Positions 3 to 33,717 of a stretch of DNA of 64,000 bases are shown piece after piece; within the stretch, counting starts at the first letter, position 1; each line of letters opens with the position of its first letter. The DNA comes from a virus. Under the pieces are notes generated by a model. That model was not told where the DNA came from. It saw nothing but the letters and a program-made list of their open reading frames with translations, and did no database searches. Location: positions 32,001 to 96,000 of the IMG/VR virus record IMGVR_UViG_3300045115_000211; one strand, 5' to 3'. Made by a program: the position numbers and the translations under genes.

Positions 3-677
3 TTGCCTTACGGGACGACCCAAAATCAGTGGGACTCCGTCATACCGTTGGAGCCACTGTGGGCGCAGTACGACAGGCTGCTGTCCAAGGACGGGGTCGT
101 GGTCCTCACGGCGCAGGGGAAGTTCTCCGCTATGCTGATCCTTGCGGCCCCGGAATCGATCCCGTACAGGTACTCCGCCGTCTGGTGCAAGCGCAACCAC
201 ACGAACCAGCTCAACGCCAAGAGGCAACTCCTCCGCAAGCACGAGGACGTGCTCGTGTTCTACCGCGGGGACCCGGCCTACAACCCGCAGGGACTCGTCA
301 GGAAGGGCACGCTCACCAAGCAAGGCAAGACCTCCACGACCTGCTACGGTGAACAAAAGCGTGACCCCTACGTGCAGGAGTGGACGAACTGGCCCACGAC
401 GCTCATCGAGGTCGACGGGAAGACCAGCAGAACCCACCCGACTGAAAAGCCATTGGCATTGTGGGTTTATTTGATGAGGACATTCAGCAACGAGGGAGGC
501 TTGGTTTTAGATAACTGTTCTGGCTCTGGTACAACTGCCGTGGCGGCCAGGATGTTCGGAAGGCGTTTTGTTTGTATCGAAAAGGACGCAGACATACACG
601 CAAAATCGCTGGTCAGACTGGAACAAGAGGCTCCAGTTTGTGACCTATTTGGCTCAACGATTCCAGGGTCTTCCTGA
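3..677 (+). CDS. DNA N4/N6 methyltransferase (beta class), 5' truncated by window edge
   Basis: LPYG catalytic motif remnant, HEDVLVF, HPTEKP, VLDNCSGSGTT SAM-binding motif. Confidence 0.9.
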   Translation: MPYGTTQNQWDSVIPLEPLWAQYDRLLSKDGVVVLTAQGKFSAMLILAAPESIPYRYSAVWCKRNHTNQLNAKRQLLRKHEDVLVFYRGDPAYNPQGLVRKGTLTKQGKTSTTCYGEQKRDPYVQEWTNWPTTLIEVDGKTSRTHPTEKPLALWVYLMRTFSNEGGLVLDNCSGSGTTAVAARMFGRRFVCIEKDADIHAKSLVRLEQEAPVCDLFGSTIPGSS

Positions 678-1568
678 TGCTGTCTTTGACCATCTCCTTG
701 GACTGACTCACATCGTGCTCCCAAAAACGCAGAACAGTGTACCCGCACTTGCGCATGTATGCGTCTTGTGACCTGTCGAGGTTCATTCTTTTGGTCTGTC
801 TTGGGCCCGGATTTCGATAGCCATGCCAGTAGTCTCCGTCCCATTGAATGACGAGGCTTGTCCCATCAACAACCGCATCTACGACGAATTTGTCGGAGAT
901 CAGCACTTGGGTCGAGAACGAGAGACCCAACTCCCGAAGAATGGCAGATCCATTTTCTTCGAGGCTGGTAGGCTTTTGACGCCGTTGTTGTGCAAGGTTG
1001 CCTGCGATGACGGCGTTTCGTTTCCAGTCTGGGCATGCGTTTCTGCACGCCATTGAGCAGTACAGAACGGCAGCGAATTTCTTTTTGCACGGGCTGCGTC
1101 TGAACACCTTTCCGCATGTTTTGCAGGTGTGCTCAACCTTGTGTCTTCCTTGATAGTCGTTGTGGCATTTTGGGTCACAAAAGCAGTTTTTGATAGCCTT
1201 CCCAAGGGGATGTAGATTGGAACGCCGCAGTTTTTGCACCTCGATTCTGTTCCCGTAAGTCTTGTTTGCCCGAAACAGGCCCCAGAGCAATAGATCTGCT
1301 TGTCGTGGCTTGGTTGAAATTTCTTGCCGCATCGCTTGCAAACCTTGGGCGTGCTTCGAGAGGCAACGCCGGCGCATTTTCTCGAACAGTATTTGCCTGT
1401 GCGATGCTGGTTGACCACGAATCCCCTCCCGCACACGCGGCACTCTTCCATTCTTGACATCGCATCTGGGCGATAGCACCGCATTGAGCAGAAACGATAC
1501 GGTTTGTATCCGACGCGGGAAAACCCTTTTCCGCACCTCTGGCAAACATATTGACTGATGTGTCTCAT
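613..1568 (-). CDS. Zn-finger-repeat + Vsr/DUF559-like endonuclease (free-standing homing-endonuclease-like), frameshifted near 1190
   Basis: CxxC...YCSxxC repeats start in one frame (MRHISQYVC) and continue in another, ending in VDAV...QWDGDYWHG...GYTVLRFWEHD; low GC. Confidence 0.75.
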
Positions 1569-1693
1569 GACTTGCTCTTTGGCACATCCCAATATGCCGT
1601 CTTGCACTTTGGGCACATCCTCACGTCGCTTTTCCTGGGAACCCACTTCCAATCGCATTTCAGGCACTTGAGGAATTGGAGTTTGACTTTCAT
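1565..1693 (-). CDS. 42-aa zinc-ribbon protein (not in ORF track)
   Basis: MKVKLQFLKCLKCDWKWVPRKSDVRMCPKCKTAYWDVPKSKS; ATGA overlap with the nuclease gene. Confidence 0.75.
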   Translation of the reverse strand: MKVKLQFLKCLKCDWKWVPRKSDVRMCPKCKTAYWDVPKSKS

Positions 1694-1730
1694 GGACACT
1701 CATACGATGTTACATAGGTAAATCCCTGCA

Positions 1731-1759
1731 TTGACTTTCGGTAGCGAGGCGCCTATAAT
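1731..1759 (+). promoter_or_regulatory. sigma70-like promoter, leaderless start of vsr
   Basis: TTGACT-17bp-TATAAT, GTG 6 nt later. Confidence 0.85.
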
Positions 1760-1765
1760 GCCAGC

Positions 1766-2179
1766 GTGAGAAAAGAAACCAAAGCGCAGATCAGCCACCG
1801 GATGGCCCTCATCCGCGGCAAGTGGACCCTGCCGGAGAGGCAGGCCCATGGGTTCCTGAAGTCCATCCACGCCAGGCACAGGATGCACCCCACGATGCCT
1901 TCCAAGGACATGGGGCATCCTGACGTCGCCCTGTCGGGGACGCGCACCGTCCTGTTCGCCCACGGATGCTTCTGGCACGACTGCCCGGCGTGCGCCAGGG
2001 ACAAGGCGAGGATGAAGCCCTTCTGGAGGGACAAGGTCACGAGGAACGCCGCCAGGGACGGGCGCCAACTCGCCGCCTTGCGATCCGCCGGGTGGAACCC
2101 CGTCGTCATCTGGGAGCACGACTTCAGGAGCGGCGCCTACAAGGGGTTGTTGAGGCTGGCAGTGGACGGGGCACGATAG
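1766..2179 (+). CDS. vsr: Very short patch repair endonuclease
   Basis: T.PE, GHPDV, FAHGCFWH, NAARD, GW..VVIWE motifs. Confidence 0.9.
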   Translation: MRKETKAQISHRMALIRGKWTLPERQAHGFLKSIHARHRMHPTMPSKDMGHPDVALSGTRTVLFAHGCFWHDCPACARDKARMKPFWRDKVTRNAARDGRQLAALRSAGWNPVVIWEHDFRSGAYKGLLRLAVDGAR

Positions 2180-2192
2180 GGCGAGGCATGGG

Positions 2193-2987
2193 ATGCTGGT
2201 CATCGATGCGAACGGAAGGCTGAAGACGCCGGACGGCGTCCCCCTGGACGATTACGTGTGGCGCCGCCAGTACCGGGTCGGCGCCGACGGGACGTCGCGC
2301 CTCGCATTCTCGATGATGGGGGTCACGCGCGAGTCGTACATGGGGACCCCAGAGCCCAACCCGCGAGGGCCATTGCGGGTCATGTTCGTGCCGCCGGACG
2401 GCGTCTTCGTGCCTTCCAGCAGGCTGGTCGCGCTGAGGCCCTGCTGCGAGCACATCTCCGTCACCTTGTCGAGGGGATACCACGCCAGCGAGGACGTCAA
2501 CCCCGTCGCGGCCGATCCTTCCAGGATGTCCTACGAGATCGACGCCATAGCCGCCGTGATCTGCGAACCCGCCTCGCCTGCCGCTCCAGCCCCGTCGCCG
2601 CTGGAAGCCGTGGCCGCGGCGCGCATAGTCGCGGGATCCATATTGACGATCGATGACTCCACTTGTCTCGTGCGGCTCGCCATCGGAGGCGAGCACCCCA
2701 TCGGGGTCGCCACCGCCGCCCCCGACTCCGACGGCAACGTGGAGGCTTTCCTGTCGTCGGGAGAGACCGTCAGACTCCAGTCCAGGCAGGCCATCGTCGT
2801 CGAGCACGGCGAGCGCCTGCCGACGGTGCCCGCCGAACAGTGGCTTATCCGCGAGAGGATGCGGGAGGCCATGCGAGCCGCCCGACCGACCAGCAAACCC
2901 GGCAACCCCTTCGGCGGGCCGGCCGTCCCTTCCGATCCTGAAGTCGGCGACTTCAGGATCGCGGAGGAGGACGAGTTGCTGGGGTAG
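2193..2987 (+). CDS. hypothetical protein
   Basis: long ORF with phage-typical GC3 codon use. Confidence 0.6.
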   Translation: MLVIDANGRLKTPDGVPLDDYVWRRQYRVGADGTSRLAFSMMGVTRESYMGTPEPNPRGPLRVMFVPPDGVFVPSSRLVALRPCCEHISVTLSRGYHASEDVNPVAADPSRMSYEIDAIAAVICEPASPAAPAPSPLEAVAAARIVAGSILTIDDSTCLVRLAIGGEHPIGVATAAPDSDGNVEAFLSSGETVRLQSRQAIVVEHGERLPTVPAEQWLIRERMREAMRAARPTSKPGNPFGGPAVPSDPEVGDFRIAEEDELLG

Positions 2988-3016
2988 TTGACTCCGGATC
3001 GGCCAGCCCCTATAAT
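2988..3016 (+). promoter_or_regulatory. sigma70-like promoter
   Basis: TTGACT-17bp-TATAAT. Confidence 0.85.
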
Positions 3017-3070
3017 GGGCGCCTGAAGGACGGAAATCTGAAAGGCTGGCAATCCACAAAGGAGGACGGG

Positions 3071-3691
3071 ATGAACGGGTTCGGATCGAGGAACGGCGGG
3101 GTCGGGCTGTACGTGCTGCTGGGGATCGGTGTCGTGGCGGTGTTCCTGGCGTTTATGCTGATGGGCTGGAGCAACGCCGAGCGGGCGCAGCGCAACCTGC
3201 TGACGGCCAAGCAGAAGGACAACACGTCCGAGTTCGACAACCTCAAGAAGAAGATCAACGGCATCGTGTCCATCCCCGAGGCCAAGATGGACGCGCTCAA
3301 GTCGATCTTCGTCGAGCACGCCCAGGCCCGCACGTCCGGCGGCAGCCAGGACGGCTCGCTGATGAAGTGGGTCACGGAGTCCGTGCCCAACGTCGGCGAC
3401 GCCGCCGGCATCTATGACCAGGTGCTGAACCTCGTCGTGGCGTCCCGCGACTCGTGGACGCAGCGCCAGAAGGAAATCCTCGACATGAAGAGGGTGCACG
3501 ACAACATCCTCGACCTCGGGTTCCGCGGCCTGTTCCTGACGTCGGTGCTCGGCAGGCAGAAGATCGAAGTCGTAATCGTGACGTCCGTCGCGACGAAGCG
3601 CGCCTTCGAGACCGGCGAGGACAACGACGACGGCACCCTGTTCAAGCGCAGGGCCGACAAGCCCTCCGAGAAGACCGCCGTCGAGAAGTAG
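3071..3691 (+). CDS. LemA-like membrane-anchored protein
   Basis: N-terminal TM helix, coiled body, W..ESVPN; strong SD GGAGG. Confidence 0.55.
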   Translation: MNGFGSRNGGVGLYVLLGIGVVAVFLAFMLMGWSNAERAQRNLLTAKQKDNTSEFDNLKKKINGIVSIPEAKMDALKSIFVEHAQARTSGGSQDGSLMKWVTESVPNVGDAAGIYDQVLNLVVASRDSWTQRQKEILDMKRVHDNILDLGFRGLFLTSVLGRQKIEVVIVTSVATKRAFETGEDNDDGTLFKRRADKPSEKTAVEK

Positions 3692-3960
3692 GGGACCATG
3701 ATCTTCACGCTCGGCAGGAAGGACATCTACGAGCCGCTCTTCGTCGACCCGGACAAGCCTCCGAGGAAGGCGAAGGGCGGTAGCGTCTGGCAGACCTGGG
3801 GCGGGGCCGAGAAGCACAGGCTCTCGATGCCGAAGCCCAACGACTTCGCCGTGTACGGCGTCGGCGCCGACTGGCACAGCTCGCAGGTAAGGGCCGAGGA
3901 GAGGGGCGTCGAATGGCGCTCCTTGACGGTCGATGCTCCCCTCGTGAGGATAGCCGTCTG

Positions 3961-5190
3961 ATGAGCGACATGGGCATGTCCTTCTTCTACGGGATGGCGA
4001 TGCTGCCGATCCTGATCGGCCTGTTCCTCTTCGCCAAGAAGCGCGAGGTCGTGTGGTGGGAGTGGCTCGCGGGCTGCGGCCTCGCCCTGCTGATGGCGGT
4101 CATATTCCATTGGATCGCCCTTGAGGCGCAGTGCCGCGACCACGAGGTCTTCTCCGGCAAGGTCGTCTCGGCGACACATCACCCCTGGTGGCAGGCCCGC
4201 GAGGAGGTTGACGACTACGAGGACGAGGAGTACACGGACTCCGAAGGCAACAAGCACACCAGGCGCAAGAAGGTCGGTTCGCACTACGAGTACCACGACC
4301 ATCCCGAGCATTGGACGTGCGAGGCGGACTTCGGATCGTACTCCTCGACCGTCGAGTACGAGATCGACCAGGCGTTCTTCCGCCAGATCGCGGCCAACTT
4401 CTGCGGCGGCAGCCTGCGGACCGTGCAGCCGTGGAAGTCGGACTTCTACAAGGGCGACAAGAACGAATACGTCGCCGACAACAAGACGGGCTACGTCTAC
4501 CCAACGACCCGCTGGATGGCCTTCAAGAACCGCGTCAAGGCGTCCCCCAGCCTGTACTCCTTCGCCCCGGTCCCCAAGGACGCCAAGGTCTTCCCGTACC
4601 CGGCCTGCAAGGACCCGTTCGCCTCCGACAGGCTCGTGGGGACGGCGAGGCAGACCATCCCCTTGAGGGACTTCGACGTGATGTGCTCGTCCCTCGGCCC
4701 AAGGAAGAAGGTCAACCTGATCATGGTCGGGTTCGGCGAGGCCGGATCCGAGGCGGCCCACGTGCAGGAGGCTGCCTGGGTTGGCGGCAAGAAGAACGAC
4801 CTCGTCCTCTGCTACGGCGGCAAGGACCAGAGGAAGCCGTCCTGGACGTACGTGTTCGGCTGGACGGACAAGGCCATCGTGAAGGTCAACCTCCAGTCCA
4901 TCCTGCTGAAGAACCCCATCGACGCGACGATCCTGCCACTCGTCGAGGCGGAGGTCTCCAGGAACTACGAGATCAAGGAATGGAGGGACTTCAGCTACCT
5001 CCAGGTCGAGCCGCCGGCGTGGTCGTACTGGGTCTACATCTTCGTGATGGTCGGCGCCCAGGTCGGGTTCTGGTTCTGGGCCAGGTCGAACGAGTTCGGG
5101 AAGGACACGCCGCGCGGATCCGGCCCGAGGAACCCCTTCGACAGGACCTTCGGCGGGTTCGGGTCGGGCGGCAGGAGGCTGTTCCGGTGA
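3961..5190 (+). CDS. membrane protein (N-terminal TMs, C-terminal TM, GGKKND motif)
   Basis: hydrophobic segments at both ends; WVGGKKNDLVLC. Confidence 0.6.
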   Translation: MSDMGMSFFYGMAMLPILIGLFLFAKKREVVWWEWLAGCGLALLMAVIFHWIALEAQCRDHEVFSGKVVSATHHPWWQAREEVDDYEDEEYTDSEGNKHTRRKKVGSHYEYHDHPEHWTCEADFGSYSSTVEYEIDQAFFRQIAANFCGGSLRTVQPWKSDFYKGDKNEYVADNKTGYVYPTTRWMAFKNRVKASPSLYSFAPVPKDAKVFPYPACKDPFASDRLVGTARQTIPLRDFDVMCSSLGPRKKVNLIMVGFGEAGSEAAHVQEAAWVGGKKNDLVLCYGGKDQRKPSWTYVFGWTDKAIVKVNLQSILLKNPIDATILPLVEAEVSRNYEIKEWRDFSYLQVEPPAWSYWVYIFVMVGAQVGFWFWARSNEFGKDTPRGSGPRNPFDRTFGGFGSGGRRLFR

Positions 5191-7955: not shown

Positions 7956-9038
7956 ATGGCAACCATCTTCAGCCTCTTCACCGGAGCCGGAGGCCTTGAC
8001 CTCGGGTTCGCACAGGCTGGGTTCCGCACGACCCTCGTCGTCGAGACCGACAAGGCCTGTTGCGACACGTTCGTAGCGAACTTCCACGGCGACCTGACGT
8101 CGGTCAACGGTCCCGTCGAGAACGTGTCGTTCTCCGAGGATTCCCCGGGATTGCTGGAGGTTGCGTTCCGTGGAGCGGAATTCGAGAACCGCTTCCTTCA
8201 GCCACATCCAGACGTCGTGATAGGAGGGGCCCCTTGCCAGGCGTTCTCGGTGGCTGGCCTTCAGAACCCAGACGACCCGAGGGGCACCCTGGTGGGCGAG
8301 TTCGTCAGGATCGTCAGGGAGGTCAGACCGAAGGCGTTCGTCCTGGAGAACGTGCCCCGCCTCCTGACCTCGACGAAGCCCCATGCCGAAGCCGCCAGGC
8401 TGTCCGTGCTTGCCCTGCATGACGTCGGCTACTCCGTCACGACGCACGTCCTGAACGCCAGGGACTTCGGCATCCCGCAGTCCCGCGAGAGGGTCTTCTT
8501 CGTCGGGATGATGAGTCCACTCCCCCACCTCCGGGCCTCTTCCACCGACGGCCACATGTTCCCCCACAGGACTGCCGGCGAAGTGCTGCGCGAGATCGGA
8601 AGGGAAGGAAGGGGAAACGTGCCGAACGCCAAGGTCCAGCCGTCCAAGAAGCCCATCCTCCGTCTGACCCCGTACGCCGGGATGCTGTTCAACGGGACAG
8701 GCAGGCCGATCAGGCTGGACGGGTTGTCTGGCGCCCTGCCGGCATCGATGGGAGGGAACCGCACGCCCATCATCGACGACGAGGAACTGTACGACGGGGC
8801 AGAGCCGTGGGTCGTCCGGTACCACTCCAGGCTCGTGGCCGGCGGGGCACCGGAAGCCTCGGCGCCTGTGAGGCTGCGCAGGATGACGACCGTCGAGGCG
8901 GCGGCCTTCCAGGGGTTCCCGTCCGGCTTCAAGTTCCGTGGGAGCCAAAGCAGCGTGTTCAGGCAGATCGGCAACGCCGTCCCTCCCCCGATGGCGCGCG
9001 CCGTGGCGATGGCGGTCAAGGAGCACATGGGGCTTTGA
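7956..9038 (+). CDS. DNA cytosine-C5 methyltransferase
   Basis: SLFTGAGGLD, GGAPCQAFS, ENV, QSRERVF, QIGNAV; TATAAT 6 nt before ATG. Confidence 0.95.
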   Translation: MATIFSLFTGAGGLDLGFAQAGFRTTLVVETDKACCDTFVANFHGDLTSVNGPVENVSFSEDSPGLLEVAFRGAEFENRFLQPHPDVVIGGAPCQAFSVAGLQNPDDPRGTLVGEFVRIVREVRPKAFVLENVPRLLTSTKPHAEAARLSVLALHDVGYSVTTHVLNARDFGIPQSRERVFFVGMMSPLPHLRASSTDGHMFPHRTAGEVLREIGREGRGNVPNAKVQPSKKPILRLTPYAGMLFNGTGRPIRLDGLSGALPASMGGNRTPIIDDEELYDGAEPWVVRYHSRLVAGGAPEASAPVRLRRMTTVEAAAFQGFPSGFKFRGSQSSVFRQIGNAVPPPMARAVAMAVKEHMGL

Positions 9039-9257: not shown

Positions 9258-9286
9258 TTGACTCCGCATCGGACATGTCGTATCGT
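9258..9286 (+). promoter_or_regulatory. sigma70-like promoter
   Basis: TTGACT-17bp-TATCGT. Confidence 0.7.
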
Positions 9287-9306: not shown

Positions 9307-9399
9307 ATGCCGAAGACAGCCAAGCCAGTTAGCGGGACGGGAGAGTGGGCGGCCCACGTCGCCAACATCCAGAACGGGTGTGAGCACGACTGGCGATAA
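9307..9399 (+). pseudogene. orphaned original 5' end of the radical-SAM-like gene at 10374
   Basis: MPKTAKPVSGTGEWAAHVANIQNGCEHDW(R*) aligns with MTKPVSGTKEWACHSVNIQTGCENDC; GGAG SD. Confidence 0.85.
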
Positions 9400-9486
9400 A
9401 TCGTGGCAGGGATTTGACGATGTATTCGAGAATGACCATAGCAATGACCTCAACGGCTGCAAACACGGCAGTCGAAAGGAGTTGCT

Positions 9487-10377
9487 ATGGAACAGACGCT
9501 CGTATGCAGGAAGTGCGGAAAGGACTGCGGCCATCGTCGGGCGATGCTTGGGTATGTGAAGCAACGAATCCTGGTCAAGTCCTGCGACCAATGTCGGGCG
9601 GATTCCAAGACCAAGATGCGGGCGTTGATGGCGGAACGCAATCGCAGTCCAAAGATGCGGGCGTTGAGCTCGAAGAGAATGCGTCGGCTCAACCCAATGC
9701 ACGATGCCAGAGTTGCTTTGCGGGTGGCCGAGACGAACAGAGAGGCGTATCGGACTGGACAAAGGCGTTCGTCGTTCTGCGATCCGGAGACGAAGTCCAA
9801 GGCGGAGGATGGCTCCAGAAGGTTTTGGGGGAGCGAACGGTCAAGAGAACTGAAGGAACGATTCAGGAAGAGAATGTCTCGGTCGAACCCAATGTTCGAT
9901 CCGCAGACCGTAGAGAGGGTTCAAGCAACCCTACGGGATGGTCGCTCCTCAGGACGCATCATCACCCCAAGAGGGAAGTTGCATTGGCTATGGAAGGGGA
10001 ACCGTTCGTTCAACCTTGTGGTTCGATCAAGGCTCTACAAAGTGTGGACAATCCCTGCCGTGGTCAGGGACGGATTTGCTTGCGTACTGTGCGGCAGAGG
10101 ACAATGCTCGTTGCAGGTTCATCATCTCAAGCCACTATCCGTCATCATCGGGGCGGTTCTAGCAAGAGAGGGAGTGCTGGATGTCGAGAGTTTGGCTGGT
10201 TCAGAGCGATACTCTCAACTGGCCGATTTGGTTGTCTCGGAGCATCGTTTGGAGGATGGAATCACGGTTTGCAGGCGGTGTCACGCTTCCATAGATCGTC
10301 AGTATCGTGGGCATGAGATGCTGAACCAAGACAGATTGAGCAACGGGATGCAAGCCGTTAGGCAGAGGACTTCATGA
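9487..10377 (+). CDS. HNH endonuclease (free-standing homing-endonuclease-like)
   Basis: RDGFACVLCG...VHHLKP...GITVCRRCH; NPM repeats; lower GC. Confidence 0.85.
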   Translation: MEQTLVCRKCGKDCGHRRAMLGYVKQRILVKSCDQCRADSKTKMRALMAERNRSPKMRALSSKRMRRLNPMHDARVALRVAETNREAYRTGQRRSSFCDPETKSKAEDGSRRFWGSERSRELKERFRKRMSRSNPMFDPQTVERVQATLRDGRSSGRIITPRGKLHWLWKGNRSFNLVVRSRLYKVWTIPAVVRDGFACVLCGRGQCSLQVHHLKPLSVIIGAVLAREGVLDVESLAGSERYSQLADLVVSEHRLEDGITVCRRCHASIDRQYRGHEMLNQDRLSNGMQAVRQRTS

Positions 10378-11174
10378 CAAAACCAGTTAGTGGAACCAAA
10401 GAATGGGCTTGCCATTCCGTCAACATTCAGACGGGATGCGAAAACGACTGCAGATATGGGTATTGCAAGGCCCAAGCCATCAGGTTCGGGAAGGCGACTC
10501 CCGAGTCTTGGAGCCATCCAGTAATCAACCAAAAGGCAGTCAACCAAAAGAGAAGGAAATTGGACGGAACCGTGATGTATCCTACCCAGCACGACATCAC
10601 TCCCGCCAATCTATTGCCATCCATCGGGGTGCTCTGCAAGATGCTGGCCGCCGGCAACAAGGTCCTGATCGTGTCCAAGCCCCACCTGGAATGCGTGCAG
10701 GCCATGGTCACGCAGCTCGACCAGTGGAGGGGACGGGTTCTCTTCCGCTTCACCATCGGCTCGGTCGATGACGATGTGCTCGGCTTCTGGGAGCCGCACG
10801 CCCCCAAGTTCGGCGAACGCCTCAAGGCGTTGCGGCACGCCTATGCCAACGGGTTCGAGACCAGCGTATCGTGCGAGCCGATGCTGGACGACCACGTCCG
10901 GGATGTCATCGAGGAGGTCAGGCCGTATGTCACGGACGCCGTCTGGATCGGCAAACCCAACAAACTGATGTTGCGCGCCGGCATGAACATGGGGTCGCTA
11001 CCTGAGGCGTCGGAGACAATCAAGAGAGCCAACATCCTGATCTCTACGTTCACGGACGACTTCGTCTGGACCCTGTACCGCCAGTACGATGACGACCCGA
11101 TGGTGAAGTGGAAGGACTCGATCAAGCAGGTCATCGGCCTGCCGCGACCGACGGTCAAGGGGATGGACAAGTGA
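10374..11174 (+). CDS. radical-SAM-like protein (SplB/DUF5131-like)
   Basis: NIQTGCENDCRYGYC, LIVSKP, RFTIGS, WEP.AP, SVSCEPML. Confidence 0.75.
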   Translation: MTKPVSGTKEWACHSVNIQTGCENDCRYGYCKAQAIRFGKATPESWSHPVINQKAVNQKRRKLDGTVMYPTQHDITPANLLPSIGVLCKMLAAGNKVLIVSKPHLECVQAMVTQLDQWRGRVLFRFTIGSVDDDVLGFWEPHAPKFGERLKALRHAYANGFETSVSCEPMLDDHVRDVIEEVRPYVTDAVWIGKPNKLMLRAGMNMGSLPEASETIKRANILISTFTDDFVWTLYRQYDDDPMVKWKDSIKQVIGLPRPTVKGMDK

Positions 11175-19810: not shown

Positions 19811-20923
19811 TTAAGGCTCTTGAATCCAACGACCAGACGTTCTCATGCCGCCACGAGAGGCAGACTCTGTTCGGCAAGCTGAAGGTCCTGACTGGGGACC
19901 AGAAGGCGTTCGTGGCGAGGCTGCGGGAACTTGCCAAAAAGCACAGGACTGCGTCTTGATGTGACGAGACAACGCATCTGAAGAGCATTTGAATTTCCTG
20001 TCCAGAAAAACGGTGGCATCGTGATAGAGGTATTGGTACATCCGAAAGAAGTTGCGCATCCCGTTGTGCTCGATCCTTACGACCCTTCCGCTTCGGGAGT
20101 TGTTTCTCGGTTTGGCTCTCCTCATTCCGCACTCGCGGCACACGACTTCATCAACATGGTTGATGAATTCAATCGTTCCTATCATTCCGAACGAGCAACT
20201 GCCAGAGTTTGTCTTACTGATAGACCACCAGCCATCCCCATCGAAGTACCCCCGGATGAAATGCCTAACAAGGTTTTCTCTGATGTGGGGGAATGTCAGG
20301 CTTTCGGATTTCCTTGGCGTAACGCCACACGAAATAAGAGCCTTTGCAACAAGGCTGGAAAAGACTTTCAAATGAGTTCTGTGCCGAGTTTTCCCCGTTT
20401 GTTTGTCAATGTACTGGTCGAAGGAGATGGGATGGTCGGATTTCATAGCCGACCTAATCTTTTCCAAGTGCCCACAGTCCTTCCTGTTCAAACACAGCCT
20501 GAACCCTCGTGTTTTGTTGTCGTTGTCGACGCACCCGTCGGCGGCAATGAACCCAAGCCAATAGGCCTTATCCTCGGAATCGATGCTATCAAAGAAGTGC
20601 TCATCGACGGCATGAGTTCTGCGATGTCTTGTCTCAAAGACGCCTTGTGTTTCGAGGATTTGCTTGACCTTGTTGTAATGGAGGTCAAAACTTCGTGCTA
20701 TCTTGCTGGTTGGACATCCATCAGCAAACATCCTTATGACCGCTTGGAGGGTCTCGTGTGGAACGGGACACTGATCTTGGGCTATCAGGGCCGCTCTCCT
20801 CAAACAACTCTTGACCGTATTGCGGCCCAACCCCATCTCGACGGACAGCCTTCTTATCGCTTGTCCCGCATTGAATCTACGGATGATTTCTTCCGTCACT
20901 TGCTCGGACAGTTTGGCTGGCAT
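19811..20923 (-). CDS. LAGLIDADG homing endonuclease with N-terminal HTH repeats
   Basis: KAYWLGFIAADG and HFIRGYFDGDG motifs; low GC; antisense to flanks. Confidence 0.9.
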   Translation of the reverse strand: MPAKLSEQVTEEIIRRFNAGQAIRRLSVEMGLGRNTVKSCLRRAALIAQDQCPVPHETLQAVIRMFADGCPTSKIARSFDLHYNKVKQILETQGVFETRHRRTHAVDEHFFDSIDSEDKAYWLGFIAADGCVDNDNKTRGFRLCLNRKDCGHLEKIRSAMKSDHPISFDQYIDKQTGKTRHRTHLKVFSSLVAKALISCGVTPRKSESLTFPHIRENLVRHFIRGYFDGDGWWSISKTNSGSCSFGMIGTIEFINHVDEVVCRECGMRRAKPRNNSRSGRVVRIEHNGMRNFFRMYQYLYHDATVFLDRKFKCSSDALSRHIKTQSCAFWQVPAASPRTPSGPQSGPSACRTESASRGGMRTSGRWIQEP

Positions 20924-20994
20924 ATTTCATCCTTCGATGCCGTCAATCAAAAACCCTTCTCGGGATGCTGGATGTTTCAACCATAGGAGATCAC

Positions 20995-22161
20995 ATGAGA
21001 ATAGGCCTATATGCCGCAACTCTTGACCCCATCACGAAGGGCCACCGCTGGATCATCGACGAGGCCGCCGGAATGTTCGACAAGCTCGTGGTCGCGGTCG
21101 CCGACAACCACGAGAAGCGCGGCAAGGTCATGTTCAGCGCCGAGGAGCGCGTCGCCATGGTCAAGGACACCCTCCCCCTTGGCCTCGAACTCGGCAATGA
21201 CGTCGAGGTCGTGACGTACGCCGGCGGGCATACCCCGCCGTTCACGGCGCGGTTCGCCAAGGCCATCGGGGCGACGCACCTCATCCGCGGCATCCGCAAC
21301 GAGGCGGACTTCACGGCGGAGCAGGCAATCCGTCACGTCAACCAGGACATCTGCCCGGAGGTCAGGACCGTCTTCCTCGTGCCGCCGCGGCACCTCTCGG
21401 AGGTCAGCTCCAGCATGGTCAAGGGCCTTGTCGGGTTCGACGGGTGGCGGGACGTCGTGGAGCGGTACGTCGATTCGCCTGTCGTGAAGCGGTTCCAGGC
21501 CAGGCGGCTGGAGGCCAGCGAGGTCCTGATGCGCCTGGGAGCGTCATACTCGTGCGCCTTCGCCGCCAAACAGTTCCTCGACAAGGCGTACGGGGACATG
21601 TCCGAGTCCAGCCGGGTCTACCACAACGACCGCCACATCAGGGAGTGCCTTGGGCTGATGGACATGGTGGTTTCCGACAGCCACGTCAGCCCCCAGGACT
21701 TCGACGAGATCGCCGCCGCCCTATGGTTCCACGACTGCGTCTACGACGTCGGGTCGAAGAACAACGAGACCCGCAGCGCTGGGGAGTTCGGGAGGTTCGC
21801 CTCCGAGATCAACACGGACGTCGTGGCGACCGTCAAGAGGATGATCGAAGGCACGAGGGAGCATGCGTTCAGCGGCGAGCACAAGGCGAACGTCGTCAGC
21901 GACATCGATATGGCGATCCTCGCGGCGCCGGCGGCGAGGTTCGGAGAGTACGAGGACGCGATCCGGCGCGAGTACGGCCACATCCCCGACCCAATGTTCT
22001 ACCCAGCCCGAAGGAGGTTCCTTGAGAGCTGCCTAGCCGGGCCGGTCTACTATGCCGAGAAGTTCCGGCCGCTTCGCGCGCGGATGGCCGAAAACGTCCG
22101 GCGGCTGCTGGCGACCGAGCCGTACGCCAAGAGGTGGGATCTGCAAGGCAATGAGGGATAA
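20995..22161 (+). CDS. coaD: phosphopantetheine adenylyltransferase fused to HD-domain phosphohydrolase
   Basis: DPITKGH, IRGIRN.ADF..E, VSSSMVK; then RVYHN..HI, WFHDCVY, DIDMAIL, IRREY. Confidence 0.9.
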   Translation: MRIGLYAATLDPITKGHRWIIDEAAGMFDKLVVAVADNHEKRGKVMFSAEERVAMVKDTLPLGLELGNDVEVVTYAGGHTPPFTARFAKAIGATHLIRGIRNEADFTAEQAIRHVNQDICPEVRTVFLVPPRHLSEVSSSMVKGLVGFDGWRDVVERYVDSPVVKRFQARRLEASEVLMRLGASYSCAFAAKQFLDKAYGDMSESSRVYHNDRHIRECLGLMDMVVSDSHVSPQDFDEIAAALWFHDCVYDVGSKNNETRSAGEFGRFASEINTDVVATVKRMIEGTREHAFSGEHKANVVSDIDMAILAAPAARFGEYEDAIRREYGHIPDPMFYPARRRFLESCLAGPVYYAEKFRPLRARMAENVRRLLATEPYAKRWDLQGNEG

Positions 22162-22693
22162 GTCCACCATAACAACGGCCGACGCCGAGAGGCTCCTGTC
22201 GAAGGGGTGGAGACTGACGGAACACAAGTGCGTCTTCCATGGCCATTCCTACTACGTGCATGACGAGTCCAGAAGGGGGCTTTGTGGCAGCGCGGCTTAC
22301 ATCAACAGGGACGTCTTCGATGCGCTCGTCAAGCGCGGACATCGTCCAGTCCGCCGCACGCATGCGTGACCCGTCCTTCGCGTCTCTTTTCCTGTCCGAG
22401 CCGTCAGGATGGAGCGACCGCGACCGCAGGGCCGACGCAGCGACCGAGGAATACGAGTCGCGGTGCGAGTCCTTCGACAGGGCCGTGTGCCGGAGGAGGA
22501 ACGAGAGGGGAATAGCCATCCCGACGCTTCCCGGCGAACTGTGGGAGATCAACAGGCACGCCAGGAAGGTCCAGAAGGACGTCTGCGACAGGCACGGGGT
22601 GGAATGGAAGGCATTGAGGGAGGCCTTGTGGCGCCTCGACAGGAGCGGAACGATCGTCCGTCGCGCCGCCGCGCCGCCGAAGGAGAGACAGCG

Positions 22694-23023
22694 ATGTGCG
22701 ACATGAGGATCCAGGACAAGGCGGAGTACCGCCGCCTGCTCGACGAGATCGGAGCCGACTACTGCCCCGAGGGGAGGTACTGCATCTTCAAGGAGTTCCT
22801 CGTGGCGTCGCACCCCTCGCGTCGCCTGCTCGTCCAACTCAAGTGCTGCGACAAGGCAAAGTTCGCGTGGAGCAAGGACGGCGGCAAGGACATCGGATGG
22901 GAGGAGACGCTAAAACGCTGGGTAGATTCGGGATTGGCAAGGCGCTTTGCGGAGGTCTACGCGGACTCCCTTTCTCCAAGGGAAGTGTTCAGAATGACAT
23001 TCGAACAGCCGCAAGTCTCTTGA
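22694..23023 (+). CDS. hypothetical protein with low-GC 3' end
   Basis: SD AGGAG; codon use shifts after ~22895. Confidence 0.65.
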   Translation: MCDMRIQDKAEYRRLLDEIGADYCPEGRYCIFKEFLVASHPSRRLLVQLKCCDKAKFAWSKDGGKDIGWEETLKRWVDSGLARRFAEVYADSLSPREVFRMTFEQPQVS

Positions 23024-23706
23024 TCGTCGGCACCTTCACGATGCTTGGCTCCATTCGTGTTCCCCATCAGAGCTTTTCTGATTTTGTCCCTAGTTTCTTG
23101 GGATACTGGGTGTCCCATTCTTGCAGCACTCATCTTGGCTCGTGTGACGTCAGATATGATCTTGCCAGTTTCAGATTGACTGATCTTCAGACGCACCGAT
23201 GCTGGGATATGCCGACCCCAGTTGGGGCTTTTCGACCCCCTGAAAGCCTTGGATATTTTCGCTTTAGTCGCTTCCGACTGTGGGTGTCCTGGTTTCCCCA
23301 GTTTCGCAACTCGCATCAGCATCTTTGTATGCTCTGAATGAGGTCCGCGTTTCTTCCCAAGTTTGGCAATGCTCATCCTCCTGCGACTTTCTTCGCTATG
23401 CCTTGGCGCATGACCGCCGCCCATCATATTGTATCCATGGGCCCTGTCGGTAGTCCTATATGCGGCAATCAGGCGAGATTCTGCCTCGTCCAAGTTTTCA
23501 GGAGCGCAGTGCTCCAAGACTTCGAAAACAAAAGCATCCTCTCCGTGCTTGTTCCATGCGGCCTGAAGGTGGCGATTTGGATGGAATCCACGACGCAGTT
23601 GTCCCCTGTGCCCATTCCATCTGTTCCTGATGTCCATGGATTGACCGATGTTCCGCTTCCCGTTGACGGTGTTCGTGATGCTGTATATGCCGCTCATCTT
23701 GCTCAC
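22957..23706 (-). CDS. GIY-YIG endonuclease with NUMOD3 repeats
   Basis: SGIYSITN..NGKRNIGQS, R, GYN, repeated HSEE...MS.AK.G; low GC. Confidence 0.9.
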   Translation of the reverse strand: MSKMSGIYSITNTVNGKRNIGQSMDIRNRWNGHRGQLRRGFHPNRHLQAAWNKHGEDAFVFEVLEHCAPENLDEAESRLIAAYRTTDRAHGYNMMGGGHAPRHSEESRRRMSIAKLGKKRGPHSEHTKMLMRVAKLGKPGHPQSEATKAKISKAFRGSKSPNWGRHIPASVRLKISQSETGKIISDVTRAKMSAARMGHPVSQETRDKIRKALMGNTNGAKHREGADDQETCGCSNVILNTSLGERESA

Positions 23707-23861
23707 TTCGCGCCTCCTTCGACCCTTTCGAATGCTTCTTTGATAAGGTTCCTGACGAGTTGGGAAAGGTTCACGGAATGCTTTTTCTTGAGGACGTCGA
23801 GCATGCGTCTCTCTTCGACCCCTATTTCGACATAGAATCCAATGCGCTTGTCTGTATTCAT
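23703..23861 (-). CDS. 52-aa ribbon-helix-helix-like protein (not in ORF track)
   Basis: MNTDKRIGFYVEIGVEERRMLDVLKKKHSVNLSQLVRNLIKEAFERVEGGAK; GTGA overlap with GIY-YIG start. Confidence 0.7.
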   Translation of the reverse strand: MNTDKRIGFYVEIGVEERRMLDVLKKKHSVNLSQLVRNLIKEAFERVEGGAK

Positions 23862-23911
23862 GCCCTATGGTTCTCTATAACGACTGGGAAATCCTTCGTC
23901 CATTTTGACCG

Positions 23912-23940
23912 TTGACTTCCCTGTCGGGGCATGCTACGAT
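23912..23940 (+). promoter_or_regulatory. sigma70-like promoter
   Basis: TTGACT-17bp-TACGAT. Confidence 0.75.
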
Positions 23941-24007
23941 GCAGGGCGAAAGGAAGGTCAGGACCGATGGGCGAGGCGATTGAGATGGTGGAAGAGGAGG
24001 TGTTCCC

Positions 24008-24901
24008 ATGATCAGCAGGAGCAGGTCGAGCGGTGATTGGGCGTTGAACGTGTTCGAGGGGTTCCGCATCGATACGATGCTGCCGAAGCACACGAGGGTC
24101 CGCGAGCTGGCGAAGCAGGCCCAACAGGGCGGGATCATCCAGAACGCGGTCGGCGACGGCGCATCGTCCGACCCGTTCGTGTCCATGAAGGTCCAGAGGT
24201 GGGGCACCTTCAACGGCTGGGCCGATGGCGACTCCAAGGATCTGCCAGGATGGCGCCGCAAGGCCGTCAGGTTCTTCGAGCGCGCCCTCGGCGTCGCCCC
24301 GGCCCGCAGGGACGACCCTCCGAGCGGCAGGATCGACCCCCTCAGGGTTCTCATGGAGGCGAAGGTGTCCCTCGCGGAAGTCCGCAACTGCATGGACAGG
24401 ATGGCGGCCTACGACGAGGCGATACGGCAGGCGGCGCAGGGAGGCCAGACCGCGCGGGTCGAGAAGCTGATGCTGGCCCGCAAGACAGTCCAGCAGGAGA
24501 GCGTCCTTCTCGCCGGCGGCTTCGGCAGGTTCCTGTCCGAGGCCCAGGCGATAGAGTTCGCGTCGAAGTGCCAGAAGGGGTTGCGGCTCGACTGGGCGGC
24601 CAACTTCGTCCGCCCCTTCCCTCCGGACGCCCTCGCCCGCAAGAAGGCGGCCGACGAGCTGATGGTGTTCGACAACTACGCCTTGCTGCACTACGACCCC
24701 AAGGCGAAGGCGTTCTCGCTGACGGCCGCGCAGGAGGCGGCCAAGCGCGACCCCATCCTGTTCGGGCTGATCGAGGGGGTCAGGAAGCTGTACTTCGTGG
24801 CGGACTGGAAGGACGACGAGTGCGACCTGACGATGGACGAGGTCGCGAGGGTGCTGGGGCACGGCCCAGGGGAAATCGGGATCGATCCGACGAGGGAATA
24901 G
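24008..24901 (+). CDS. hypothetical phage protein
   Basis: strong SD GAGGAGGT; C-terminal RDPILFG...KLYFVADW..D.CDLT. Confidence 0.7.
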   Translation: MISRSRSSGDWALNVFEGFRIDTMLPKHTRVRELAKQAQQGGIIQNAVGDGASSDPFVSMKVQRWGTFNGWADGDSKDLPGWRRKAVRFFERALGVAPARRDDPPSGRIDPLRVLMEAKVSLAEVRNCMDRMAAYDEAIRQAAQGGQTARVEKLMLARKTVQQESVLLAGGFGRFLSEAQAIEFASKCQKGLRLDWAANFVRPFPPDALARKKAADELMVFDNYALLHYDPKAKAFSLTAAQEAAKRDPILFGLIEGVRKLYFVADWKDDECDLTMDEVARVLGHGPGEIGIDPTRE

Positions 24902-28505: not shown

Positions 28506-29025
28506 GAGGACGACGATGGCATTCACGTGCAAGGATTGTGCGCCAGAGAGCGCCGGATGGCTGTTCGACTTGGCGATGGGTGTCAGCCGTGGACCGTGCG
28601 AGGACTGCGGCAGGGTCTCCGACTGCATCGACTGGCACGGGGACTCGCGTTCCACCGGCGACAAGCCGAAGGGAGAACCCCTTGACGCGCACAGGTACGA
28701 CAGCCGCGAGGACGAATGAGCCCGAAGCTCGACAGGAAGGACTGGCCCAAGCCGCCTCCGTTCGTGAGGCCGGACAGCCTGTGGCTGGTCGTCTACGAGT
28801 GCCGGTACGACGTGATCAGGGTGTCGCCCCAGGGGGACGGGTTCTTCGCGCCGGGCCAGGACGTCCTGTGGGGGTTCAGCAGCGTGACGGAGTGGGTCAG
28901 GGAGATCGTGCCGCCGGGCGAGGAGGCTGCGAGGGCGGCGTGCCCGAGGTGCGGATGCTAGGCGATGGACCCCTTCGGGATGGGCGTCGTGGTACACGAC
29001 ATCGGGAAATGCGGAGGGATCAGGG

Positions 29026-29430: not shown

Positions 29431-29440
29431 GGAGGACGAC

Positions 29441-30598: not shown

Positions 30599-31254
30599 AC
30601 ATCCTGATCATCGCAAGGCACAGGATGCGGTACTGGTGGCGCAGGTCAGTTAAGGCCTTGGGGTTCTGCCCAGATTGCTGGAGCATCCTGAACTACACGA
30701 CGAGGGGCAGGCCGATATGCCCGAGGTGCGGGAGGTAGACCTCCACGTGAAGTGGCACGGCAAACGGTTGCGTGGCGTGACGCGGTGGGAAGTCCGGCAT
30801 TCCGAGGGCGCTGACCACGGTCTGCGCCCGCAGAGGTTCGGTTCGCGACGCGAAGCAGTGCTCCGCGCCCGCGAGTGGAACAAGGACTTTCCGGGACACG
30901 TCGTGTGCCCGGTGTTGCCACACGCCCAGCCTCGCCCTGTTCGTCACATCAAATGAGACAGACGCAGCGGTCAGGACATGCCGCGCCGAAGCGAAAGGAA
31001 ACGGGGATGAGAAAGCACACGGTCAAGGTGACGGTGTCTGGGTCGAGGGGGACAGGGCTCACGACGATCGCCGAAGTTATCCGCCAGGCCCTTGAGCAGG
31101 CCGACTTCGAGTGCGAGGTCTCGTCGGGATTGCAGAGGGAGTTCGACGACCTTCCCGGCGGCTCCTTCGACCTTCGCTGCGGCGCCGTCAGGGAAAAGAC
31201 CATGGTCGTCATCGGGGAACTCGCCTGCCGCCCTGGCAAGGCGGGGAAGTAGGC

Positions 31255-31626
31255 ATGGGCTGCATCGAATATCCCGACATGCCGGCCGACGTCGTGCCAG
31301 ACAAGTGCAGGTCGTGCGACGGGCATTGCTGCAAGATATACGCCGACCACGATCACGGAGGCGGCAGGCCGTGGACGGTGTGGTTCGAGGAGTGGTGCGA
31401 GAACTGGCTCGCCGAGTTCGCCGCGACGGAGGCCGACAAGCGCTTCGTCCCGTTGTTCGATCCGCTTGAGGTCCACATGGGAGGCAACGAGCATATGCTC
31501 GCCGACCTGCGGGCGAGGGGCATCGATCCTGACTCGTGCCAGTACCGGGGACAGTCGGGATGCTTGCTTCCGAGGGAGTTCCGACCGAAGGTGTGCAGGC
31601 TGTATGTCTGCAAGGAGGCTCAATGA
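31255..31626 (+). CDS. CxxCxxCC (YkgJ-like) Cys-cluster protein
   Basis: CRSCDGHCC ... C....GC.....RP.VC..Y.C. Confidence 0.7.
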   Translation: MGCIEYPDMPADVVPDKCRSCDGHCCKIYADHDHGGGRPWTVWFEEWCENWLAEFAATEADKRFVPLFDPLEVHMGGNEHMLADLRARGIDPDSCQYRGQSGCLLPREFRPKVCRLYVCKEAQ

Positions 31627-32267
31627 AAGAAGTTGTTGAGGCGCGGGCGACCATGAAGGTCCGCAACTTCATGCAAGGGGCGGCGATAGGGGTTCTTCTT
31701 CTTTCGATCGTCGTTGGCGTGCTGTGCGCCATCGGGAACGACCGCCGCAAGGCGACCGCCAGGGGCGTCAGGGTCGGATCGTCGAGCCTGTCCGTCAAGT
31801 TCTCCCCCAAGGGCGGCTGCGCCGACGCCATCGTGGCGGAGATCGGCAAGGCGAAGGAGTCCGTCCTCGTGCTCGCCTACTCGTTCACGTCGCGGCCCAT
31901 CTTCGCCGCCCTGCTGGAGGCCAAGAGGAGAGGGATCGACGTCAAGGTCGTCGTGGACGGCGGCCAACTGGAGGTGAGGTCGCTGGTCTGGGAGTCCTAC
32001 TCCAACGGCATACCGACGCTCGTGGACTGCAGGCACGCGATAGCCCACAACAAGGTGATCGTCATCGACGACAGGGTGGTCATCACGGGGTCGTTCAACT
32101 TCTCGGCGGCGGCCGAGAACAGCAACGCCGAGAACCTCCTCGTCATCAGGTCGAAGGACGTCGCGGCGCTGTACGGGTCGAACTGGGCCGAGCACGCTGG
32201 GCACTCCGTGGCGCCGATGGGAGTATCCGACAGGCCGAAGAGGCGCACCATCGAGGAGCAGGAATAA
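31623..32267 (+). CDS. phospholipase D-family nuclease (Nuc-like) with N-terminal TM
   Basis: FSP.GG, AYSFTS, AHNKVIVID, TGSFNFS, NAEN. Confidence 0.9.
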   Translation: MKEVVEARATMKVRNFMQGAAIGVLLLSIVVGVLCAIGNDRRKATARGVRVGSSSLSVKFSPKGGCADAIVAEIGKAKESVLVLAYSFTSRPIFAALLEAKRRGIDVKVVVDGGQLEVRSLVWESYSNGIPTLVDCRHAIAHNKVIVIDDRVVITGSFNFSAAAENSNAENLLVIRSKDVAALYGSNWAEHAGHSVAPMGVSDRPKRRTIEEQE

Positions 32268-32321
32268 TGTTTTCAGGAGCAACTTGCAGGGATTACAGTC
32301 CTTGTTGCCGAATACAAGGAC

Positions 32322-33227
32322 ATGAAGACAAGACTGCAACTGCTCGATGCCCCACATGAAGTCCACGAATCAATACTGGTTGACGAGACAATCGCCAAGT
32401 TTGGCTATGATCCGCGGCTACTCAAGGCGGCCAGCCAGAAGTTGGTAGTCAAGAGGTTTGGTTGCTGCGGACTCGTGGCTGACAGGGGGTATAGAGCCGC
32501 ATCGCAACAGCATTCTTGCCAGAGATGCGCGAACAAGCGTCGCTCGATTGAAACGGCATCCATAAGGTCGGAGCGAATCAAGACATGGCTCAAAACACAT
32601 ACCCACTCCCGCCTCGGCATCAAACATACGGCGGAATCAAAAGCCAAGATGAGCGCCTCTCAAAGAGGACGAGTCATACCTCCAGAGACGCGCATCAAAT
32701 GGATGGGGAAGAAACTATCTCCAGAATCGCGAGCCAAGTTGAGCCAAGCATTGATGGGCAAGCCCTGTCCCCAAAAGGCCTTGGATTACTGGAAGGACCC
32801 CGCTCATCTAGGTGTCAATCATCATCGGTATGGCGTTCGTCCGCCACATGCCCACAAGGTTTGGTACACATGCCAAAATGGAATGCGGATTTGCTTCCGA
32901 AGCACCTGGGAGGCTCGCGTAGCCCGTCACTTCGATGAACAAGGAACAACATGGGAATATGAAACCAAGATGTTCCCAGTCTCGTACGAATGGAACGGCT
33001 CAAGAAAGGAATCAACTTACCGATCTGATTTCTGGTTGCCAAGCCTTGGTTGCTATGTCGAAGTCAAGGGATTGTGGAGAGAAGAGTATGCGACCAAGTT
33101 CAGGGCTTTCCGTGAACAATACCCAGAAGTTGTTGTCGAGGTTTGGGACAGGGCCGTCTTGCGGTCAAAAGGGATCAGAACTGGGTATGTAGCCTATGGA
33201 GAATTCAATGAGGACGACGTACGGTGA
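32322..33227 (+). CDS. NUMOD3 + PD-(D/E)xK endonuclease (free-standing homing-endonuclease-like)
   Basis: HTAESKAKMS; FRSTWE...WEYE...Y.SDFW....YVEVKG; low GC. Confidence 0.8.
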   Translation: MKTRLQLLDAPHEVHESILVDETIAKFGYDPRLLKAASQKLVVKRFGCCGLVADRGYRAASQQHSCQRCANKRRSIETASIRSERIKTWLKTHTHSRLGIKHTAESKAKMSASQRGRVIPPETRIKWMGKKLSPESRAKLSQALMGKPCPQKALDYWKDPAHLGVNHHRYGVRPPHAHKVWYTCQNGMRICFRSTWEARVARHFDEQGTTWEYETKMFPVSYEWNGSRKESTYRSDFWLPSLGCYVEVKGLWREEYATKFRAFREQYPEVVVEVWDRAVLRSKGIRTGYVAYGEFNEDDVR

Positions 33228-33717
33228 GTGTATTTCGGAATTGAAACCAAACGAGGTCATGGTGTTTGGGGCAAATTTATCGGGCTTCCATGGCGCCGGC
33301 TCCGCAGGCTTCGCCTCCTTCGGCGTTCCCGGCAACCGCTGGCGCGAGTTCGACTACGCCAACAAGCCCAAGGGCTGGAAGGGCAAGTGGAACGTCAAGG
33401 GGCAGGGCGAGGGCCTCCAGGAAGGCACCGAGGGCAAGTCCTACGCCCTCCCCACGGTCTGGAAGGCGGGACAGAAGCGCTCGCTGTCGCGCGAGGAGAT
33501 CGTCGGGAACATCCGCAGGATGTACGCCTGCGCCAAGGCCCATCCGCAGTGGCGCTTCCTGGTCGCCGGCTCCACCAGCGGCAGGCTGCTGTGCGGCTAC
33601 TCGCACGAGGAACTGTGTGCGATGTACCGCGTCGCCGGCCCGATCCCGGACAATGTCGTCTTTTCTGTATCATACACGGATATGATCGAAAAGGAGAATC
33701 GAGATGAAGTTGGTTAG
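33208..33717 (+). CDS. phage protein with VFG.N..G.HGAG / G.SYALPT motifs (macro-like family)
   Basis: motif recognition. Confidence 0.65.
   Translation: MRTTYGECISELKPNEVMVFGANLSGFHGAGSAGFASFGVPGNRWREFDYANKPKGWKGKWNVKGQGEGLQEGTEGKSYALPTVWKAGQKRSLSREEIVGNIRRMYACAKAHPQWRFLVAGSTSGRLLCGYSHEELCAMYRVAGPIPDNVVFSVSYTDMIEKENRDEVG

Follow-up and report, generated by a model that had tools for sequence, protein, structure and literature searches.

Low-GC homing endonuclease cassettes and the recoded ends of their neighboring genes in a GC-rich phage genome

In a 64,000-nucleotide stretch of a GC-rich phage genome, the IMG/VR virus record IMGVR_UViG_3300045115_000211, we identified five low-GC islands, each of which carries a free-standing homing endonuclease gene and adjoins a neighboring gene whose facing end shares the codon usage of the endonuclease gene. 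The record is 113,194 bp long, with an estimated completeness of 62%, and the stretch analyzed here (the window) corresponds to its bases 32001 to 96000; no close relative of the record was found among GenBank phages or in IMG/VR. The window is 64.6% GC, its genes lie nearly all on the plus strand, and the GC content of their third codon positions (GC3) is near 0.9. The islands, at ~440-1780, 9400-10620, 19960-21025, 22900-24000, and 32250-33285, have a GC content of ~50% (0.48-0.55 versus 0.65 elsewhere), and each contains one intact nuclease open reading frame (ORF).

Nuclease genes and adjoining gene ends

The five nuclease genes, as placed by Pfam and PHROG matches, are the following (window coordinates).

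613-1587, minus strand: DUF559 (Vsr-like fold) homing endonuclease with N-terminal zinc ribbons; Pfam DUF559 41 bits (cutoff 20.6), PHROG endonuclease / homing endonuclease, GC3 0.57.
9487-10377, plus strand: probable HNH homing endonuclease; PHROG HNH endonuclease 5.8e-8, CxxC...HH...CxxCH in the translation, Pfam HNH_2 16.9 bits (under the cutoff of 21).
19960-20923, minus strand: LAGLIDADG homing endonuclease with an N-terminal helix-turn-helix (HTH); phrog_4645 1e-57 end to end, Pfam LAGLIDADG_3 36.5 bits (cutoff 22.5).
22957-23706, minus strand: GIY-YIG plus NUMOD3 homing endonuclease; Pfam GIY-YIG 31.7 bits (cutoff 22.6) and NUMOD3, PHROG homing endonuclease 4e-37.
32322-33227, plus strand: NUMOD3 plus phage endonuclease-I-like (PD-(D/E)xK; T7-endonuclease-I-like) homing endonuclease; Pfam NUMOD3 and Phage_endo_I 39.2 bits (cutoff 29.1), PHROG endonuclease.

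All five are intact ORFs that lie between genes and outside any intron or intein, and they combine a nuclease domain with a DNA-binding module, the modules found among them being NUMOD3, HTH, or zinc ribbon; they are thus of the free-standing kind. The initial annotation had counted five nuclease families, and five Pfam families are indeed represented, although two of them, DUF559 and endonuclease I, fall within the PD-(D/E)xK-type superfamily. No stop codon ends the LAGLIDADG frame at the edge of its cassette, and the frame remains open to 19811, running through 19811-19959 in the antisense of the 3' end of the native neighboring gene for ~45 codons of native GC and low complexity. As the frame reads through past the edge in this way, we place the left edge of the cassette at the stop codon of the neighbor (~19960). 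Relatives of this nuclease are at most 34% identical; some are intron-encoded or free-standing, come from Staphylococcus and Bacillus phages, and have no neighbor in common.

Each of these cassettes adjoins exactly one recoded end of a neighboring gene, in which GC3 moves from a native value of ~0.9 to a cassette-like value of ~0.5. GC3 change points were located inside the neighboring genes and given a permutation p value, and codon usage was scored as a cassette-versus-native log-likelihood (LLR) and compared with all equal-length native windows. The affected gene parts are listed below.

441-677, plus strand: recoded 3' end of an N6/N4 DNA methylase gene, from HPTEKP to the stop and including the S-adenosylmethionine (SAM)-binding motif; GC3 0.79 to 0.49 at codon 189, p = 0.0005, LLR 0.97.
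10374-10620, plus strand: recoded 5' end of a radical-SAM (SplB-like) gene, codons 1-82 including the Cys cluster; GC3 0.59 to 0.90, p = 0.0005, LLR 0.64.
10621-11174, plus strand: native rest of the radical-SAM gene; GC3 0.87-0.93.
20995-21024, plus strand: recoded first 10 codons of CoaD-HD (ATG AGA ATA GGC CTA TAT GCC GCA ACT CTT); GC3 0.30 to 0.91, p = 0.0005, LLR 1.30; the switch falls at 21025, immediately 5' of DPITKGH, and the spacer at 20924-20994 is low-GC as well.
22910-23023, plus strand: recoded 3' end (~37 codons) of a 109-aa gene at 22694-23023; GC3 0.93 to 0.57, p = 0.001, LLR 0.68.
33208-33285, plus strand: recoded 5' end (~25 codons, to the HGAG motif) of a gene at 33208-33717 (phrog_2072 family); GC3 0.60 in the first 25 codons, LLR 0.83.

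The initial annotation had claimed that every one of the five cassettes abuts such an end, and the change-point, terminal-codon, and LLR tests bear this out for the window. Four of the neighboring genes have a change point with p <= 0.001. In the gene at 33208, the change-point test chose the 3' end (33661, p = 0.0005) rather than the 5' end; its 5' switch at ~33285 was read from the codon pattern and is supported because the terminal-codon and codon-usage tests agree. As controls for the terminal 25 codons, we used 70 native 5' ends with a start fixed by the preceding gene and 106 native 3' ends; longest-ORF starts proved useless as a change-point control, since in GC-rich DNA they extend spuriously upstream and produce very large change points. 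GC3 is 0.48-0.68 in the four focal 5' ends versus 0.72-1.0 in the 70 control 5' ends, none of which is as low as the first 25 codons of the gene at 33208. The methylase 3' end has a terminal GC3 of 0.40, lower than all 106 controls, and the 3' end of the gene at 22694 has one of 0.60, a value this low being found in 4 of the 106. Further, the LLR of every recoded stretch lies above that of all equal-length native windows. For the nine CoaD codons, 0 of 6,316 native 9-codon windows reach the score, and AGA, ATA, and CTA, all present in this short end, have native shares of 1%, 9%, and 1% within their codon families.

The recoded ends and the nuclease genes have the same codon usage, and the nuclease ORF overlaps the recoded end in four of the five cassettes. 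The convergent DUF559 and methylase genes share 65 nt at their 3' ends, the convergent GIY-YIG gene and gene at 22694 share 67 nt at theirs, the stop of the HNH gene overlaps the radical-SAM start as ATGA, and the 3' end of the endonuclease-I-like gene shares 20 nt with the start of the gene at 33208. Because of these overlaps, we regard the nuclease gene and the gene end as one contiguous piece of foreign DNA.

Each recoded part encodes sequence that is conserved across its gene family. The methylase 3' end encodes the SAM-binding motif and the C-terminal region, and the radical-SAM 5' end encodes the Cys cluster. The CoaD end encodes the first strand ahead of the HxGH motif, the Pfam match beginning at ORF residue 17. 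Phage homologues of the protein encoded at 33208 align starting at residue 1-6, and ~200 homologues of the protein encoded at 22694 have alignments typically reaching residues 100-108 of 109. Judged from these alignments, all five low-GC parts are real homologous gene ends and not accidental new tails, and we call them "recoded" because they encode sequence conserved in each family.

A displaced gene end, mosaic proteins, and further cassettes

Upstream of the HNH gene lies a second, truncated version of the beginning of the radical-SAM gene, recognized by tblastn and by DNA alignment to the new 5' end.

9307-9399, plus strand: relic of the native radical-SAM 5' end, 30 codons, which breaks in the Cys motif and is followed by a stop.

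The stretch at 9322-9396 corresponds to residues 3-27 encoded by the new radical-SAM 5' end, with 72% identity over 25 aa (E = 1e-8 in a tblastn search of the whole record), and a promoter-like site is located at 9258-9286, ahead of the relic ORF. DNA similarity between the relic and the new copy stops at GACTG.GATA, within the Cys motif. The two versions differ at 7 of the 25 residues, and 11 of the 18 identical residues are in different codons, almost always with G/C in the relic where the new copy has A/T. Their affinities differ too: among homologous proteins, the relic matches P0131 at 22/25 residues, versus 18/25 for the new end, which is nearest P0122 and P0124 (21/25 residues) and has the rarer YGYC form of the Cys cluster, as in P0127, P0128, and P0150. 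Since the relic is found upstream, we conclude that the HNH gene and a full foreign 5' end of 82 codons sit inside the old gene, the old start of which was left behind.

The relic breaks at codon ~31 of the radical-SAM gene, and the codon-usage switch falls at codon ~75-82. Because the two positions differ, we read the switch as the far end of the imported tract, with the cut placed between the nuclease gene and the switch. The proposal that switch points predict cut sites was therefore not upheld; the switches bound the cut and do not locate it. A tblastn search of the whole record (E < 2) gave no relic for any of the other four window cassettes. Partial radical-SAM matches in IMG/VR were considered as relics and rejected, as they are merely diverged; the one at L254 is a separate DUF5131-like gene.

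If the recoded ends were imported, the parts of a recoded gene should have separate histories. We partitioned the genes at the GC3 change points before comparing the proteins and assessed the differences with Fisher tests. The two ends of the methylase are nearer to P0002, with which alone it has an unusual N-terminal extension in common, and its core is nearer to P0003, P0006, and P0008 (p = 2.6e-4 to 1.7e-3). RtcB, encoded outside the window, behaves similarly: its native N-terminal part is 75% identical to P0242 and 35-56% identical to the other listed matches, and the recoded C-terminal part, with 65% identity to P0242, is no nearer to it than to the best other match (p = 7.5e-5 to 2.5e-3). 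Discordant affinities are thus found in the methylase and RtcB, and in the radical-SAM protein the signal is weak (best p = 0.002). In addition, five high-GC, cassette-free loci of radical-SAM homologues 45-52% identical (L081, L100, L149, L128, and L151) have uniform GC3 along the gene, including its 5' end.

Five is the correct count of such cassettes for the window and an undercount for the whole record, which contains at least 11 homing endonuclease cassettes. Gene ends that face an endonuclease have a GC3 of <=0.70 in 8 of 22 cases, compared with 8 of 176 control ends (Fisher p = 4.7e-5), and tract lengths across the record range from 30 nt to >1 kb. The methylase gene is flanked on both sides by nucleases. 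At its 5' side lies an endonuclease-VII-like gene (phrog_1035), which overlaps the methylase start by ATGA, and recoding (GC3 0.52) extends over ~48 codons from that start to the DLPYG catalytic motif, so that both ends of the methylase gene are recoded.

Genome 31155-32017 (window -845 to 17; L003:13155-14017): site of the endonuclease-VII-like gene and the methylase 5' end.

The RtcB gene (L002:7378-9599) is recoded from PDAHQGYG to the stop, over >1 kb, with a GC3 of 0.53-0.80, and adjoins a SegE-like GIY-YIG gene. A NUMOD3 plus TnsA-like (PD-(D/E)xK) endonuclease cassette at 3241-4260 within L002:2685-4999 is the sole cassette with both neighboring ends recoded, namely, ~55 codons at the end of the upstream gene and ~25-50 codons at the beginning of the downstream one.

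The junctions lie in or beside the conserved segments DLPYG, HPTEKP, HDITP/GNKVLIVSKPH, DPITKGH, KDIGW, HGAG, and PDAHQGYG. The claim that the switches occur at conserved motifs holds as a trend only, as the junction windows reach just the 83rd-89th percentile of conservation. Junctions in conserved segments do not single out cleavage, because recombination between diverged alleles and selection among the hybrids predict the same pattern.

Several other features of the record were noted. An HNH-type endonuclease gene is located in a tRNA cluster (L003:3231-4467; genome 21231-22467), with two tRNA-Gln genes (ttg and ctg) on one side and an adjoining pair of tRNA-Asn(gtt) genes on the other; one of the pair is 99 nt long, and the two might be a native and an imported copy. 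Just past the DUF559 cassette, at window 1766-2179, lies a gene for a Vsr mismatch endonuclease, and two C5-cytosine methylase genes are nearby (window 7956-9038 and genome 29941-30978). The phage thus carries a Dcm/Vsr-type pair of its own besides N6/N4 methylases. Native arginine codons across the record are AGG at 43%, CGC at 34%, and CGG at 16%, which is odd for a GC-rich genome, and no tRNA-Arg gene was found in the scanned parts of the record.

Origin of the recoded ends

We consider it probable that each island is a free-standing homing endonuclease gene that entered the phage genome when a double-strand break was repaired from the copy in a lower-GC donor phage and that co-conversion of the flank produced the hybrid genes. 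The nuclease would cut a nuclease-free allele of the neighboring gene, and repair would then copy the nuclease gene together with the donor gene segment from the nuclease to the break and somewhat past it (the co-conversion tract). The product would be a hybrid gene in which a native core is joined to a foreign end; this end would encode sequence of the same protein family in other codons and with some amino acid changes, and it would presumably resist the resident nuclease. Tracts may end in conserved segments because diverged alleles would recombine only where identity remains and because only in-frame, working hybrids would survive. Four of the cassettes would have replaced the native end without a remnant, in the manner of T4 Seg/Mob-type homing between genomes that share gene order. 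At the HNH cassette, the far junction would have formed within the target gene, and the native 5' end (the promoter and ~30 codons) would have been displaced as the relic. The tracts are visible as codon-usage switches because the donors were compositionally distinct (~50% GC). That the flanking genes contain co-converted donor sequence is indicated by the codon switch on one flank and by the mosaicism of the methylase and RtcB.

Several observations weigh against this explanation. A relic is present at one of the five window cassettes (1 of the 11 in the record), the radical-SAM mosaic signal is weak though it has the same trend (p = 0.002-0.6), and the CoaD (10 codons), 33208, and 22694 tracts are too short for a phylogenetic test. 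No related nuclease occurs beside the methylase or radical-SAM homologues at loci L005-L160, where the homologues are 25-52% identical, and the closest relatives, 65-80% identical, are known as proteins (P0002, P0003, P0005, P0006, P0122, P0131, P0134, and P0242). Searches of GenBank phages and IMG/VR yielded neither a donor sequence nor a cassette-free allele of a close relative. Specifically, no donor or close relative was recovered with window 20965-24901 (megablast against GenBank phages), with the HNH cassette plus its target (blastn), with the HNH protein or the 22694 protein (tblastn), or in a CoaD scan of IMG/VR, and methylase and radical-SAM alignment scans of IMG/VR and metagenomes gave only relatives <=52% identical among the matches listed. 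Finally, AT-rich spacers without a nuclease ORF occur at ~33646-33720 and 42390-42550 (GC 0.38-0.50), and the genes ending at 33717 and 42337 have low GC3 in their last ~20 codons with no nuclease beside them.

An alternative is that all five sites hold an obligate composite element of the type formed by yeast WHO elements and by the mobile ORFs (mORFs) of fungal mitochondria, in which the nuclease travels with a defined replacement end that confers resistance, the inner boundary coincides with the cut, and insertion is one-sided and needs no shared gene order. The anatomy of the HNH cassette (relic, nuclease, replacement end) is exactly of this type, and the overlap of nuclease ORFs with replacement ends implies that the two have been linked for some time; moreover, the WHO switch coincides with the cut, at base 668 (PMC7282813). 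However, a retained native end, as in WHO and mORF elements, is seen at the HNH cassette only and not across the set of five; the four cassettes without a relic fit ordinary two-sided replacement. Even at the HNH cassette, the relic break and the switch lie apart, and tract lengths of 30 nt to >1 kb vary as conversion tracts do. We regard an obligate composite at all five sites, the stronger form of what the initial annotation proposed, as unlikely.

Recoding in place is considerably less probable still. According to this explanation, the ends were never imported, and AT-rich synonymous drift or selection altered them so as to escape the nuclease or to serve the expression signals of the nuclease gene. 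The CoaD (30 nt) and 33208 (~75 nt) tracts are indeed roughly as long as a recognition site and a ribosome-binding region together, and low GC3 is also seen at some gene ends by nuclease-free AT-rich spacers. Yet the tracts of 240 nt to >1 kb far exceed a recognition site, amino acids change as well, and the ends and the core have different nearest relatives. The differences between the relic and its replacement, at 7/25 residues and at most synonymous sites, imply an old divergence rather than local drift, and the codon usage matches that of the nuclease genes. That there is no real feature at all, the pattern being due to chance, a general 5'/3' codon-bias effect, or miscalled gene starts, is barely credible: in GC-rich genomes the opening codons of genes often have a relaxed GC3 and gene starts here are predicted only, but the 70 start-constrained 5' ends all lie above the focal ones, permutation gives p <= 0.001 per gene with a change point, and homologues align across the low-GC parts.

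Entry by homing with co-conversion is therefore our preferred explanation, and it is a mechanism of a known kind. It is predicted by intronless homing with co-conversion (PMC2988022), and the composite unit is known from WHO elements (PMC7282813) and fungal mORFs (PMC3630166). The proposal of a mobile unit made up of a nuclease and a replacement gene end describes well what moved, given the shared foreign composition, the contiguity, the mosaicism, and the relic; it is not a new concept. As the mechanism is already established, the value of these loci lies in illustration and prediction. The GC contrast exposes the co-conversion tracts of free-standing endonucleases from five families at single-codon resolution in one genome, and it provides target predictions for five uncharacterized nucleases, namely, the methylase gene, the radical-SAM gene, CoaD, and two small genes. 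As far as sequence comparison can tell, homing can also join parts from diverged lineages into hybrid enzymes that probably work, the junctions falling within or next to conserved motifs.

More tentatively, we speculate that endonucleases in this phage lineage home across very different base compositions and that the sub-genic pieces swapped in this way (here nine gene ends at 8 of the 11 cassettes) could be a main source of hybrid genes; between non-syntenic genomes, the cassette might then come to lie inside its target gene with a replacement end of its own, a WHO-like route not known to have been described for phages. If this is true, compositional scars would reveal the targets and the approximate cut regions of uncharacterized nucleases from sequence alone.

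Comparison with known homing systems

The free-standing Seg and Mob endonucleases of phage T4 cut neighboring genes hundreds to thousands of base pairs from their own genes, and the flanks are co-converted (Edgell et al. 2010, PMC2988022; the work on T4-type intronless homing reviewed there includes Liu et al. 2003). The cassettes described here resemble them in consisting of free-standing GIY-YIG- or HNH-type genes between phage genes, in having the predicted target in the neighboring gene, and in the copying, by break repair, of the nuclease gene with flanking donor sequence (co-conversion, marker exclusion). As with T4 SegB, one of the cassettes outside the window is located in a tRNA cluster. 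They differ in that the composition of the donor was very unlike that of the recipient, giving visible switches and hybrids between lineages, in that five families are represented in one genome, and in that they are known from sequence alone. We found no description of a displaced gene end, as in the HNH cassette, in the phage review (PMC2988022).

Barth, Dunham and Seed (2023, PMC10448857) reported nuclease genes at the boundaries of exchange between phages, for islands of >10 kb shared among close relatives. There, as here, one phage has many endonuclease genes, which lie beside or within important genes and mark recombination boundaries; the pieces described here are instead sub-genic, at 30 nt to 1 kb, and their donors are distinct in composition.

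The nearest parallels to the HNH cassette are found in eukaryotes. Yeast WHO elements at FBA1 consist of a nuclease gene and a replacement gene end that confers resistance, and they replace the 3' end of the target and leave fragments behind (Coughlan et al. 2020, eLife, PMC7282813). Both systems have a chimeric target gene whose parts have discordant affinities, and at the HNH cassette the native end, once displaced, likewise survives as a fragment. In WHO elements, however, a single intein-like nuclease family is used and a 3' end is replaced, the target being a nuclear gene of a eukaryote, whereas in the phage both 5' and 3' ends are replaced, five families take part, a fragment remains in one case of five, and the relic break and the switch lie apart. 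In fungal mitochondria, mORFs have generated gene hybrids in atp6 of Allomyces macrogynus and in atp6, atp9, cox2, and nad3 of Glomus (Beaudet et al. 2013, PMC3630166). Here too, a LAGLIDADG or GIY-YIG ORF brings a foreign gene terminus, the native terminus persists beyond it, and the differences are mostly synonymous. The mitochondrial replacements are C-terminal only and often in frame with the host gene, whereas in the phage replacement is seen at 5' as well as 3' ends and the native end has mostly been lost. With the radical-SAM gene and its HNH cassette, the layout of a relic plus a replacement end, familiar from yeast WHO elements and from mitochondria of fungi, thus has an example in a phage.

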